A stretch of 64,000 nucleotides of DNA, taken from the sequence record NZ_CP086424.1. The stretch is one strand, 5' to 3'. This DNA is from a plasmid. Of this stretch, positions 18,601-30,600 are shown in pieces (position 1 is the stretch's first letter; every line of letters begins with the position of its first letter). Position numbers: made by a program.

Positions 18601-21600
18601 AGGCCACACGCAAGGCGCGGCGTGACGCGGATCGCCGCCAGCACCTCAAGACATCAGCTCGGCCGGACAAGCCCGTTCCGCCGGATACGGATATTGCCGA
18701 CCCGCAGGCAGACAACTTGCCACCCGCCAAACCGTTCGACCAGATTGAGGAGTGGTAGCCGTGGACGAATATCCCATCATCGACCTGTCCCACCTGCTGC
18801 CGGCGGCCCAGGGCTTGGCCCGTCTTCCGGCGGACGAGCGCATCCAGCGCCTTCGCGCCGACCGCTGGATCGGCTATCCGCGCGCAGTCGAGGCGCTGAA
18901 CCGGCTGGAAGCCCTTTATGCGTGGCCAAACAAGCAACGCATGCCCAACCTGCTGCTGGTTGGCCCGACCAACAATGGCAAGTCGATGATCGTCGAGAAG
19001 TTCCGCCGCACCCACCCGGCCAGCTCCGACGCCGACCAGGAGCACATCCCGGTGTTGGTCGTGCAGATGCCGTCCGAGCCGTCCGTGATCCGCTTCTACG
19101 TCGCGCTGCTCGCCGCGATGGGCGCGCCGCTGCGCCCACGCCCACGGTTGCCGGAAATGGAGCAACTGGCTCTGGCACTGCTGCGCAAGGTCGGCGTGCG
19201 CATGCTGGTGATCGACGAGCTGCACAACGTGCTGGCCGGCAACAGCGTCAACCGCCGGGAATTCCTCAACCTGCTGCGCTTCCTCGGCAACGAACTGCGC
19301 ATCCCGTTGGTTGGGGTAGGCACGCGCGACGCCTACCTAGCCATCCGCTCCGATGACCAGTTGGAAAATCGCTTCGAGCCGATGATGCTGCCGGTATGGG
19401 AGGCCAACGACGATTGCTGCTCACTGCTGGCCAGCTTCGCCGCTTCGCTCCCGCTGCGCCGGCCTTCCCCAATTGCCACGCTGGACATGGCTCGCTACCT
19501 GCTCACACGCAGCGAGGGCACCATAGGGGAACTGGCGCACTTGCTGATGGCGGCGGCCATCGTCGCCGTGGAGAGCGGCGAGGAAGCGATCAACCATCGC
19601 ACACTCAGCATGGCCTGTCGACAACCTCTCGCGCAACCAAGACATCGCGGTCGGACTGCAAGTGATCTTGAAGCCACGGGCCCGTCCCACCCCGACATGG
19701 ACCTCGATGCCCGAACGGACGTTAGATTTCGAGTTCTAGGCGTTCTGCGATGAAGGTTGGATCCCAGCCGGGATTGAAAGTGTCGACGTGGGTGAATCCG
19801 AGCCGCTCGTATAGGCCACGCAGGTTCGGGTGGCAGTCGAGCCGCAGCTTGGCGCACCCCTGCGTTCGCGCGGCATGGCGGCAAGCCTCGATCAGCGCGG
19901 AGCTGACACCCCGGCCCGCATGTGTCCGTCGCACCGCGAGCTTGTGCAGATATGCGGCCTCCCCCTTGAGGGCGTCGGGCCAGAACTCGGGATCCTCGGC
20001 CGACAAGGTGCAACAGCCGACGATGCCGTCGCTGCAACTCGCGACTAGGAGCTCGGATCTCAGGACGAAGGTCTCCGCGAATGTCCGGTCGATCCGCGCG
20101 ACGTCCCAGGCGGGCGTTCCCTTGGCGGACATCCACGCCGCAGCGTCGTGCATCAGCCGCACAACCTCGTCGATATCACCCGAGCAGGCGACCCGAACGT
20201 TCGGAGGCTCCTCGCTGTCCATTCGCTCCCCTGGCGCGGTATGAACCGCCGCCTCATAGTGCAGTTTGATCCTGACGAGCCCAGCATGTCTGCGCCCACC
20301 TTCGCGGAACCTGACCAGGGTCCGCTAGCGGGCGGCCGGAAGGTGAATGCTAGGCATGATCTAACCCTCGGTCTCTGGCGTCGCGACTGCGAAATTTCGC
20401 GAGGGTTTCCGAGAAGGTGATTGCGCTTCGCAGATCTCCAGGCGCGTGGGTGCGGACGTAGTCAGCGCCATTGCCGATCGCGTGAAGTTCCGCCGCAAGG
20501 CTCGCTGGACCCAGATCCTTTACAGGAAGGCCAACGGTGGCGCCCAAGAAGGATTTCCGCGACACCGAGACCAATAGCGGAAGCCCCAACGCCGACTTCA
20601 GCTTTTGAAGGTTCGACAGCACGTGCAGCGATGTTTCCGGTGCGGGGCTCAAGAAAAATCCCATCCCCGGATCGAGGATGAGCCGGTCGGCAGCGACCCC
20701 GCTCCGTCGCAAGGCGGAAACCCGCGCCTCGAAGAACCGCACAATCTCGTCGAGCGCGTCTTCGGGTCGAAGGTGACCGGTGCGGGTGGCGATGCCATCC
20801 CGCTGCGCTGAGTGCATAACCACCAGCCTGCAGTCCGCCTCAGCAATATCGGGATAGAGCGCAGGGTCAGGAAATCCTTGGATATCGTTCAGGTAGCCCA
20901 CGCCGCGCTTGAGCGCATAGCGCTGGGTTTCCGGTTGGAAGCTGTCGATTGAAACACGGTGCATCTGATCGGACAGGGCGTCTAAGAGCGGCGCAATACG
21001 TCTGATCTCATCGGCCGGCGATACAGGCCTCGCGTCCGGATGGCTGGCGGCCGGTCCGACATCCACGACGTCTGATCCGACTCGCAGCATTTCGATCGCC
21101 GCGGTGACAGCGCCGGCGGGGTCTAGCCGCCGGCTCTCATCGAAGAAGGAGTCCTCGGTGAGATTCAGAATGCCGAACACCGTCACCATGGCGTCGGCCT
21201 CCGCAGCGACTTCCACGATGGGGATCGGGCGAGCAAAAAGGCAGCAATTATGAGCCCCATACCTACAAAGCCCCACGCATCAAGCTTTTGCCCATGAAGC
21301 AACCAGGCAATGGCTGTAATTATGACGACGCCGAGTCCCGACCAGACTGCATAAGCAACACCGACAGGGGCAATGCCGTTGCCAGGCGTTTGTTGGCATG
21401 TTGGCTGCGCTCGGTTTCAACCCGCACCGACAGGCCGCTGGCGATGTGGGTCGCGCGGATGGCCGAGTCTGTGGTGTTCACGTGCTGCCCTCCTGCGCCC
21501 GAGGCGCGGCAGGCCTGAAAGTGGATTTGCTTATCCAGAGCCTTGTCATTGACCTCAAACATCTGGCCGCTGAAGAACCAGTTTTTGCGTTTGTGCCCGG

Positions 21601-27600: not shown

Positions 27601-30600
27601 TTTGGCGGCGGACAGGTACAGAGCCCCAGACCATAGAACTTCTGCCCTGGGCCCGTGGTTACTATATGTTGGGGAGTCGCGATAACGTGGTGCTGTTTTC
27701 CACAACCCGTACTCAGGTGAGGGAACCGCTGTTTCAATGGGCCTGCAGCCTTGGCACCCTGGAGCTGAATCTCTATGCGCTCAAACGCTCAGCGCCTGCG
27801 CTGACCAAGTTGGAGGATGCCAAGCATTTGCTGGTGGCAACCGTCAGGGAAGATGTCGGCGAGCAGTTGCTGCTGAGCCAGGGTTTCGATCCGGCTTTTT
27901 TGGTACGTACCAGTAGCCTGGAGCAGGCAGTCAAGGTGCTCAACAGCGGCCGGGCCAGCTTGCTGTCCAGCAATAGGTTAACCTTACTCAGCACTCTGAG
28001 ACGCGGGGGCTACGACCCCGAGATAATGCAACCCTTGGTCAAGGTGAGTCACAGGCCCTTGTGCTTTGCCTTCAGTGCCAAGGTGCCGCCTGAACTGGTA
28101 ATGCGCTTTCAAGCTAATTTGGATCAGGTGTTGAACTCTGAAGAGGGCAAAAGTCTCAGAAAACAGTACTTTCACGGCGAGACCTTACTGAGCCTGCCCT
28201 AAGGAAGGTGCAAACAAATACCATGTGTGCTCTGCATCGGCTTATAAGTCTGGATGCAAGGCTGTAAGCCGCAAATGGCCTTAGTCCTTTGCAAGAAGCA
28301 CTTCCCTAAGAATGTGAGTTGCTTTGAAGACCCCTTTGCCAAGCTGAGGTAGACTGCAATTCTGTATTTGCAACGGAGTTGTTATGCAAGTTGTCAGCTT
28401 TACCGCCATAGGCCACGCCGAAACCCAGTACACAGAACTGGCCAACATGCCGATTCAGGGCAGCAAGGTCGCCGATAATCAAGGGGTTTTGGTGATCCAT
28501 CCCGACTATGCCGAAGGGCTGGCGGACCTCGATGGTTTTTCTCATGTTTATGTGCTGTTTCATCTGCATCAATGCAAGCAGGGCGCGCTCAAGGTTAAAC
28601 CTTTTCTCGATAACCAACTGCGCGGTGTATTTGCTACCCGTTCGCCCAAGCGCCCCAACCCCATAGGCCTGTCGATACTGGAAATCGACCGGCTGGAGGG
28701 CAACCGCATTCATGTTAAGGGAATCGATATGCTCAACGGCACCCCTATCATAGATATCAAGCCTTATATTCAGGCATTTGATTGCGTGCAAAATACCCGT
28801 GATGGTTGGTACGAGCAGGGCAAAGATCCGCTGCAAACCCTCTCTGACGACAGATTTGCCTGAAGTTATTAGAGCGCACGCTTTTATCGTTCGGCATACT
28901 TAATAATGGCTGTGGTTAACATAAAAAACACTTAATCGTCTCGCCTTTATTTCATTTGTAACCAAATGATTTCAGTTGTGGCAAAAATTGTTGTTTTTTA
29001 TTGAAGTGGTAGTTTGTTGACTATATATTGCCCCCGCTTTTTATGGGGGCTATATGAAACAAACAGTGGTAATTTTGCTGCTTACGGCAGCTTTGTCCGC
29101 CTGTGGTGGCGGTGGCGGCGATGATTCGCCTGCTCAGAAGACCAACGACAAGACAATTCACCAAGGGCTCAAGGTGCAGGATCTGCAGCTGAGCTACAGT
29201 GCCAATCAAAGGTTGCAAGTCAGTGTGCAGGGTAAGGTGGGGCAGCTCAGCTATCAGTTGAACGAGCCAAATACTGATATCCTGCGGGTATAGGAAGTAT
29301 AAACCACCTTTTTGCTCCTCATCCGAAGTATCTTACCTGAAATTCCCTCACTCGTTTACCGCTCAAGCCCCAATTTTAACTGCCGGTCCAGCCTAAACCG
29401 CTCTAATAAGGTTCGATTTGGCGGTAAAATCTCTAGCCTGATAGCTCGAGAGATACAAACTGCCCCACCGCCCCGTTTAAAAGTTGGCAGTGTTGAGCAG
29501 TGTTGGATTTGGGGTCGTCAGTCAAAGAGACGACTCTGTGATGGATCGAACAGGCTGGGAGTCAGTGGCGGCGCTCGTTCTGGTGGCAGCTCACGCTGCT
29601 TGGCGGCATTCGCCTTGGCTGTTTTCTGTTTCAGATGCTTGAGAATCTGCTCAATGACCTTCGGATCTTCGATGCTGGCAATCACTTTGACGTGACCGCC
29701 GCAGTGTTCGCAGACTTCAATATCAATATTGAAGACTCGCTTGAGGCGTTGCATCCAGGTCATGGCGCGGTGGCGCTCTGCAGGACTCTTGTCACGCCAG
29801 TTAGTATCGAGACCTTCCGATTTGTCGGGCTTCTTGCCCCGCTTGGCGGGTGTTACTTGAACTCGGTGTTTGCTGTTCGGTGCAAAGACGCCGTGGAAGC
29901 GTGTGAGGTTGACTCGCGGCTTAGGTACCAACGCAGCGAGTTTGGCGATGAAGTCCAGCGGCTCGAAGATCACATGGGTGGTGCCATTGCGGTACGGAGT
30001 TTTGAGCTCGTAACGCACCTGCCCATTGGCGGTTAATGCCAGACGTTTTTCTGAAACCGCTGGCCGACTAATGTAGCGACACAAGCGCTCAAGCTTATCC
30101 CGCTGATGCGCTTCGGCCATCACACCGGCGTGTAGCGAGAAACCAGCATGGTTGGCTACTCGACTGCTTGAGTCGGCTTTATCCTCACGCCCTGGCAAGG
30201 TTTGCAGGGTGAAGACTTTGCGCCCTTGCTGGGGGCCGACGGCAATGCGATACGTAACCGAAGCACCATGTAATTGAGTCAGCGTATCGTCTTCGCCCTC
30301 TTCCAGTGTCAACCACGTATTCTCGGCATCACGCTCCAAAATCCCACGCTTTTCCATGCAGCGAGCGATGCGATGGCTGAGGGTGTGAGCGAGCGTATTC
30401 AGCTCATCGTAAGTGGGTGCCTTGACACGATGGAAGCGTTGCTTGCCATAGTCATCTTCGGCATAGACACCATCGAGAAACAGCATGTGGTAGTGGACAT
30501 TGAGATTTAGCGCGGAGCCAAAGCGTTGGATAAGAGTCACTGAGCCAGTTTGTGCAGAGGCTTTGGTGTAACCGGCTTTTTTGATCAGATGAGTTGAGAG

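Follow-up and report, generated by a model that had tools for sequence, protein, structure and literature searches.

We analyzed a 64,000-nt stretch of the plasmid record NZ_CP086424.1 (the window; coordinates are window positions unless stated otherwise) in which a copy of qnrA, the allele reported as qnrA6, lies in DNA foreign to the surrounding integron. The favored reading, to which we give a probability of about 0.88, was that a complex class 1 integron of an IncC plasmid acquired 6,595 bp of a Shewanella algae chromosome by ISCR1 capture, and that an IS10 was inserted later. The window thereby offers a base-resolved example of how the chromosomal quinolone-protection gene of a marine bacterium reached clinical IncC plasmids, together with 6 kb of unrelated genes. 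This can be used in resistance-gene source tracking and in the annotation of these plasmids, although it will not surprise a specialist, as the structure is an ordinary one for the field.

Boundaries, donor, and proposed history of the captured segment

The foreign DNA extended from 21370 to 29285 and consisted of contiguous S. algae chromosome and one IS10. At one end it abutted the oriIS terminus of ISCR1, the 20-mer GGTTTATACTTCCTATACCC, which occurred as a single exact copy in the window (29286-29305, minus strand; chance expectation 0). At the other it ended against a truncated qacEdelta1 in the second of two copies of the 3'-conserved segment (3'-CS). Similarity to the S. algae chromosomal contig L040 began at exactly 29285 and ended at exactly 21370; the ISCR1-side junction read ...ATACCC followed by GCAGGATATC, and the junction beside the second copy (3'-CS2) read ...CATTGC followed by CCCTGTCGGTG. 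Along the minus strand, the order was 3'-CS1, ISCR1, variable DNA, and partial 3'-CS2. The two copies were 100% identical (31440-32483 and 20326-21369), with 3'-CS2 lacking the first 161 bp of qacEdelta1, and the G+C content was ca. 62% in the 3'-CS compared with 44-56% within the captured segment. The structural hallmarks of an ISCR1 complex class 1 integron were found: an oriIS abutting variable DNA, a Y2 transposase, a duplicated 3'-CS, and a 5'-conserved segment with intI1 and cassettes.

The match to L040 contained 2 mismatches in 4,381 bp over 21370-25750, both within rtcB, and none in 2,223 bp over 27063-29285, so that 6,604 aligned bases contained 2 mismatches in all, and the genes stood in the same order. 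Contigs of two kinds were retrieved when the QnrA product was used for an exact-protein look-up, namely chromosomal ones (L040 and L041) and ones sharing the plasmid structure. Both chromosomal contigs had the same gene order without the IS10, and both carried full-length prfH (211 aa) and a full-length copy of the gene for a 975-aa protein. The PrfH, 975-aa, and periplasmic solute-binding proteins of L040 were exact matches to NCBI proteins named Shewanella algae, some of them encoded on 4.8-4.9 Mb chromosomes. Shewanella carassii, S. indica, and S. chilikensis were considered as donors and rejected, as their species-representative genomes were only 71-92% identical. Judged by sequence, the donor is a strain of S. 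algae in the narrow sense, close to L040, because of the near-identity to that contig and the much lower identity of the representatives of the other species. An earlier sequence-only reading of this DNA had drawn the same boundaries, had listed qnrA, trmO/tsaA, a family-3 solute-binding protein gene, IS10, HNH and lipoprotein genes, rtcB, and prfH between them, and had expected contiguous S. algae chromosomal synteny except for the IS10; the boundaries held to the base, the genes were present by profile matches or annotation, and the synteny was found at 99.95-100% identity to L040.

The capture would have proceeded in four steps. A unit composed of truncated qacEdelta1, sul1, and ISCR1 would first have inserted in prfH of a S. 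algae strain. Rolling-circle replication starting at oriIS would then have run through that unit and on through rtcB, qnrA, and trmO (6.6 kb), ending inside the gene for the 975-aa protein. Recombination at sul1/3'-CS between the resulting circle and a class 1 integron carrying arr-2, cmlA, blaOXA-10, and aadA1 would have yielded the order 3'-CS1, ISCR1, captured DNA, and 3'-CS2. Lastly, IS10 would have entered the DNA upstream of qnrA, 42-50 bp from its start codon, creating a 9-bp duplication, and 17 bp of its outside end would have been deleted at a later time. The insertion of IS10 was placed after the capture because both S. algae chromosomes examined were free of it and all plasmid copies examined carried it. 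Two points count against this history. It was inferred from the architecture and the published ISCR rolling-circle model, so that the steps themselves are a model, and our searches found neither a S. algae genome with the ISCR1 unit in prfH nor a capture intermediate.

Other mobilized qnrA contexts and public copies of the structure

To compare the contexts, we numbered the Shewanella loci so that the start codon of qnrA fell at 10001. On this scale, the window held Shewanella DNA from 7737 to 14331 (6.6 kb; 99.95-100% S. algae). It was the longest capture in the compared set and the sole one in which ISCR1 lay beyond ca. 100 bp of qnrA. In the other contexts, the ISCR1 end was 23-103 bp from the qnrA start codon, placing the outward promoters of ISCR1 next to the gene.

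The qnrA1 context of pMR0211 (Providencia stuartii, IncC) resembled the window in that ISCR1 had captured a large segment with HNH and lipoprotein genes, likewise on an IncC plasmid (9898 to at least 14966, at least 5.07 kb; oriIS 103 bp from the start codon). However, it extended downstream into U32 peptidase and PH-domain genes rather than rtcB-prfH, had no IS10, and pointed to a S. chilikensis-like donor (99.3% to strain JC5). Integrons of the In36/In37 type (ISCR1, qnrA1, ampR, qacEdelta1; for example, in pAUSMDU8141-1) shared the ISCR1 architecture and the duplicated 3'-CS with the window, but differed at both Shewanella end points (9970-10816, 0.85 kb) and were 99.9% identical to S. chilikensis JC5 and only 93% identical to S. 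algae. Three more short qnrA1 contexts began at 9897-9901. The qnrA2 context of pHDC555-1 covered 9978-13906 (3.9 kb), with oriIS 23 bp from the start codon and 99.6% identity to S. indica KJW27.

The capture of qnrA6 was, on these comparisons, clearly separate from those of qnrA1 and qnrA2, because donor species, Shewanella end points, and identities all differed. This upheld the suggestion of the sequence-only reading that the capture was larger than, and independent of, the In36 type. Its account of the classic qnrA1 integrons, a few hundred bp of Shewanella DNA between ISCR1 and qnrA1 followed by ampR, needs one correction: ISCR1 is just 31 bp from the qnrA1 start codon, and Shewanella DNA amounts to ca. 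850 bp in total before ampR. Its description of the segment as unusually large holds only in relative terms, given the lengths of the captures in pMR0211 and pHDC555-1.

With regard to the donors of the other alleles, the QnrA protein of S. chilikensis JC5 (L003) was identical to QnrA1, and this strain matched the qnrA1 contexts at 99.3-99.9% over the region 9898-14966. The region 9978-13906 of S. indica KJW27 (L002) gave the match to the qnrA2 context noted above (plasmid contexts L047, L048, and L051 were compared). By sequence, the qnrA alleles on plasmids seem to have had different donor species within the S. algae group, and the comparison shows that qnrA was mobilized on several separate occasions, from no fewer than three of these species.

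The qnrA3 contexts were closest to the window. The integron of pECL-14-60-NDM-1-IncAC (pECL-14-60; 9924-12619, 2.7 kb, 98.3% S. algae) and of Klebsiella pneumoniae NZ_CP061701.1 was, like that of the window, an ISCR1 capture of S. algae-type DNA with qnrA, a small open reading frame (ORF), and HNH and lipoprotein genes. Unlike the window, it was without IS10, trmO, the solute-binding protein gene, rtcB, and prfH. A second qnrA3 context, that of pEcNDM1, was cut by IS26 (9924-10808, 0.9 kb, 99.1% S. algae); in both this and pECL-14-60, oriIS was 77 bp from the start codon. In the qnrA6 and pECL-14-60-NDM-1-IncAC contexts (window 21369; L037 8000-8001), one and the same base of qacEdelta1 marked the start of 3'-CS2 (CCCTGTCGG..., corresponding to window 32483); in the other qnrA contexts, the start was at 32502, 32527, or 32573 on the window scale.

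This identical start base, along with the presence in both of S. algae-type DNA and not that of other Shewanella species, would fit a single capture event from which the qnrA3 and qnrA6 integrons later diverged by deletions beside ISCR1 and 3'-CS2. We consider such a common event improbable. The shared 2.7 kb contained 31 mismatches and 4 gaps (98.3%), compared with the 99.95-100% identity of the window to the S. algae chromosome; both Shewanella end points differed (12619 versus 14331 and 9924 versus 7737); the QnrA proteins differed at two residues; and the reuse of one truncated qacEdelta1-sul1-ISCR1 unit accounts for the shared end. The qnrA6 capture thus appears very probably separate from that of qnrA3, because of the 1.7% sequence difference and the difference in both Shewanella end points, and the simplest reading is that one such unit was used twice, for qnrA3 and for qnrA6.

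The structure is already known, and both of its junctions are certainly present in public sequence records. Compared with the window, UWVD01000002.1 showed a single base difference in 20,657 bp, JBKCRR010000034.1 none in 10,702 bp, and a Logan contig one in 10,130 bp; OZ111298.1 was identical throughout the captured segment. Over 10-20 kb, the qnrA6 IncC (IncA/C2) plasmids OZ111298.1 and UWVD01000002.1 were 99.99-100% identical to the window; the matching stretch took in the two junctions, the IS10 with its 17-bp deletion, and the integron on either side. Set against these public qnrA6 copies, the window had one additional base change, at 33122, which introduces a premature stop into aadA1. 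OZ111298.1 is part of assembly GCA_964198705 of K. pneumoniae Zagreb036 (sequence type ST274, Zagreb, 2021), a hybrid long-read assembly; the link was made through the supplementary table of the paper on that isolate, and sequence accession numbers were not found in the paper texts searched. Its authors reported an IncC plasmid carrying qnrA6 "bounded by IS element and hypothetical proteins". Truncated PrfH proteins were also named from Escherichia coli and Citrobacter koseri, which, together with the identical copies in several assemblies, indicated a single origin and subsequent spread of the structure.

Published reports of the allele on IncA/C plasmids, and of its occurrence with IS10 and ISCR1, go back to 2012-2016. 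Jayol 2016 is cited in a review for qnrA6 flanked by IS10 and two ISCR1 copies, and plasmids of the IncA/C type that carry qnrA6 together with blaCMY-16 are documented for Tunisia (Arpin 2012, as cited) and Croatia. Mazzariol 2012 was listed among the papers relevant to qnrA6 on IncC plasmids, and published papers describe NZ_CP086448 and CP030744 as IncC plasmids that carry qnrA6 or are related.

There is consequently very little room for the segment being a previously undescribed capture, new to databases and literature, as the sequence-only reading had implied. In favor of that, a search of a plasmid collection with the whole segment returned only IS10 copies and shorter qnrA1, qnrA2, and qnrA3 contexts, with no record covering at least 80% of it; its IS10-free halves found no record with this allele there, and 27063-29285 found no match at all. 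Moreover, a survey of genes downstream of ISCR1 names qnrA1, qnrA3, and qnrVC6, and not qnrA6. The empty search arose because that collection was without the known qnrA6 records. Novelty to the databases was refuted by the identical copies, with both junctions, in several public assemblies (OZ111298.1, UWVD01000002.1, JBKCRR010000034.1, and the Logan contig), and novelty to the literature conflicts with the published qnrA6 plasmid of Zagreb036 and with the reports of 2012 and 2016. Identity, junctions included, to an already described integron was one of two findings that the sequence-only reading had named as fatal to it, and this was largely what we observed; the other, a lack of Shewanella homology, was not. 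That the segment is an assembly chimera of S. algae reads and integron repeats is scarcely credible, for although it is flanked by 3'-CS/ISCR1 repeats, a frequent cause of misassembly, the same joins recurred in independent assemblies of different projects, including the hybrid long-read OZ111298.1, and both junctions were clean to the base.

Variants of the structure were also seen among the public records. Upstream of its qnrA6 module, OZ111298.1 (L038) contained an extra ISCR1-blaNDM-1 module at 419-4237 and, after that, a sul1 copy, making its ISCR1 array one unit larger than that of the window. CP196129.1 (L042) and L043 were deletion variants (7099-7395) in which the Shewanella segment was cut at window 28602 and joined to IncC transfer genes (TraC_F_IV, DsbC_N), and in which the upstream ISCR1 and cassette array were lost.

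IS10 and the expression of qnrA6

The QnrA product matched NF000071 over its full length (1-218) with 514.3 bits against a cut-off of 450. It differed from QnrA1 by Q39R, V54I, V108I, T127A, and R161H, and from QnrA3 by V54I and R161H. The element upstream of its gene was an IS10 (ISVsa5/IS10R type; NF033591, IS4 family transposase) with 99.8% identity to IS10 copies and a length of 1,312 bp instead of 1,329 bp. A 9-bp target duplication, AGCGCTGCC, flanked it at 25742-25750 and 27063-27071; the duplication was recognized from a 9-bp overlap, on the L040 side, between that contig's two matches to the window. An IS10 composite transposon was excluded, as there was a single IS10 with its own target duplication. 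Searched with the segment, the E. coli complete genomes matched the IS10 and nothing else.

Alignment of the IS10 ends to an IS10 copy of E. coli DH5alpha showed the inside end to be intact. The outside end (25751-25760) read CTGAT followed by TGGTAAAAATC, with an internal loss of 17 bp (GAATCCCCTAATGATTT) that removed most of the terminal repeat; as far as 25860, the aligned sequence of this end showed no other difference from the DH5alpha copy. Intact terminal inverted repeats were therefore found at one end only. The deletion was present in every plasmid copy examined and, given the known function of terminal repeats, the element is probably no longer mobile. The outside end faces qnrA, because the transposase gene begins 90 bp from the left end, and the qnrA start codon (25700) is 50 bp from it.

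The outside end of IS10 carries an outward-facing promoter. We infer that this promoter drives qnrA6 expression, because it is the nearest to the gene and the ISCR1 promoters are 3.6 kb away. Between oriIS and the qnrA start codon lay the IS10 and a further 2,264 bp, with two genes in the opposite orientation. A published summary covers the two ends, oriIS and terIS, and the promoters that face outward from the oriIS end of ISCR1 (PMC13393415). By this analysis, the qnrA6 allele would probably have needed a second mobile element, IS10, for its expression.

Several points weigh against this interpretation. A simple scan of 25000-26100 for sigma-70 consensus promoters and terminators returned no site at threshold, and the promoter of IS10 is known from published work on that element and not from the present sequence. 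The abstract of Jayol's 2016 study is said to credit the supplied promoter to ISCR1 rather than to IS10. The allele name is a separate matter: qnrA6 was taken from the resistance-gene caller of another group, applied to OZ111298.1/Zagreb036, which holds an identical copy of the segment; an exact look-up of QnrA alleles in a protein cluster collection gave no allele name.

Taken jointly, we propose, at slightly less than even odds, that qnrA6, alone among the qnrA alleles captured by ISCR1, relies for its expression not on the promoters of ISCR1 but on that of an IS10, facing outward, which entered 50 bp upstream and became fixed there through the 17-bp deletion in its terminal repeat, and that one truncated qacEdelta1-sul1-ISCR1 unit captured S. 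algae qnrA at least twice (qnrA3 and qnrA6), with qnrA1 and qnrA2 coming from S. chilikensis-like and S. indica-like donors. The points of note in this structure would accordingly be its likely IS10-driven expression, the disabled IS10 end, the reused ISCR1 unit, and donors that may be named to species for qnrA1, qnrA2, qnrA3, and qnrA6.

Gene content and plasmid setting

The genes of the captured segment and the main features of the integron are listed in Table 1.

Table 1. Features of the captured segment and of the surrounding integron in the window.
Feature	Position	Strand	Evidence and remarks
3'-CS2	20326..21369	-	Truncated qacEdelta1 (21183-21369) and sul1 (20350-21189)
prfH, truncated	21320..21868	-	TIGR03072, 209 bits, profile positions 1-162 of 200; frame continues into qacEdelta1 DNA
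rtcB (387 aa, intact)	21868..23031	-	NF007153, 544 bits; TIGR03073 release_rtcB; cluster members nearly all named S. algae
Lipoprotein (115 aa)	23446..23793	-	Lipobox LMAC in ORF translation; pHDC555-1 homologue annotated DUF6694 family lipoprotein
HNH endonuclease-domain protein (144 aa)	24132..24566	-	PF01844; counterparts on qnrA1, qnrA2, and qnrA3 plasmids annotated HNH endonuclease
91-aa protein gene	24616..24891	-	Gene call in L038-L041; neighbor of qnrA kept in Shewanella
qnrA, allele reported as qnrA6 (218 aa)	25044..25700	-	NF000071
IS10	25751..27062	+	Transposase gene 25841-27049
Family-3 periplasmic solute-binding protein (252 aa)	27444..28202	+	PF00497 SBP_bac_3; exact protein named S. 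algae and MULTISPECIES Gammaproteobacteria
trmO/tsaA (159 aa)	28384..28863	+	TIGR00104, 143 bits; exact protein on S. algae chromosomes
Gene for 975-aa S. algae protein, first 232 bp (77 codons)	29054..29285	+	Cut by oriIS junction; L040 gene 5041-7968, L040 7737 = window 29285; 975-aa protein named S. algae
ISCR1 (common region)	29286..31439	-	2,154 bp; oriIS end 29286-29305; 3'-CS repeat begins 31440
ISCR1 IS91-family transposase gene	29518-31059	-	513 aa; Zn_Tnp_IS91 (PF14319) and Y2_Tnp (PF04986) domains
3'-CS1	31440..32644	-	Complete qacEdelta1 (32297-32644) and sul1, upstream of ISCR1
IntI1	37453-38466		NF011946, 797 bits

The 91-aa protein, labeled a membrane protein in the sequence-only reading, found no family match in the profile search. 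Genes other than qnrA on the captured segment are passengers. Among them, rtcB and prfH form the RtcB-PrfH pair of ribosome rescue and repair; the two were adjacent and rtcB was complete, and prfH was not. The S. algae sequence stopped at 21370, leaving a PrfH product of 182 aa compared with 211 aa in S. algae, and the truncated gene is probably inactive.

The captured DNA forms the variable part of a complex class 1 integron of the ISCR1 type. This integron lies in a Tn1696/Tn21-like transposon, within the resistance island that adjoins rhs in the IncC plasmid. The 20 kb from 44000 to 64000, including rhs, traG, and traH, were 100% identical to many plasmids typed IncC. Leftward, 3'-CS2 ran on into orf5 (GNAT protein), tniB-delta, and tniA (TniB and Mu-transposase-type domains). 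The cassette array of the integron in the window held arr-2, cmlA, blaOXA-10, and aadA1, and tnpR, tnpA, mer genes, and an IS110-family element were also present. The aadA1 cassette (about 32808-33600, minus strand) contained a premature stop between DPVPE and DLFEAL, caused by base 33122, which was A in the window versus G in UWVD01000002.1; on this sequence, the streptomycin/spectinomycin resistance gene is probably inactive in the window copy only.

Two 334-aa ORFs, at 11254-12258 (minus strand) and 42383-43387 (plus strand), had equal scores to an IS110-family model and lay in opposite orientation, bracketing the transposon with its mer, tni, integron, tnpR, and tnpA parts. Elements of the IS4321/IS5075 type lie in this way at the ends of Tn21-family transposons. 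In the plasmid backbone, an ORF of 817 aa at 2177-4630 showed a weak match, below the curated cut-off, to a sulfurtransferase of the DndC/PAPS-reductase type.

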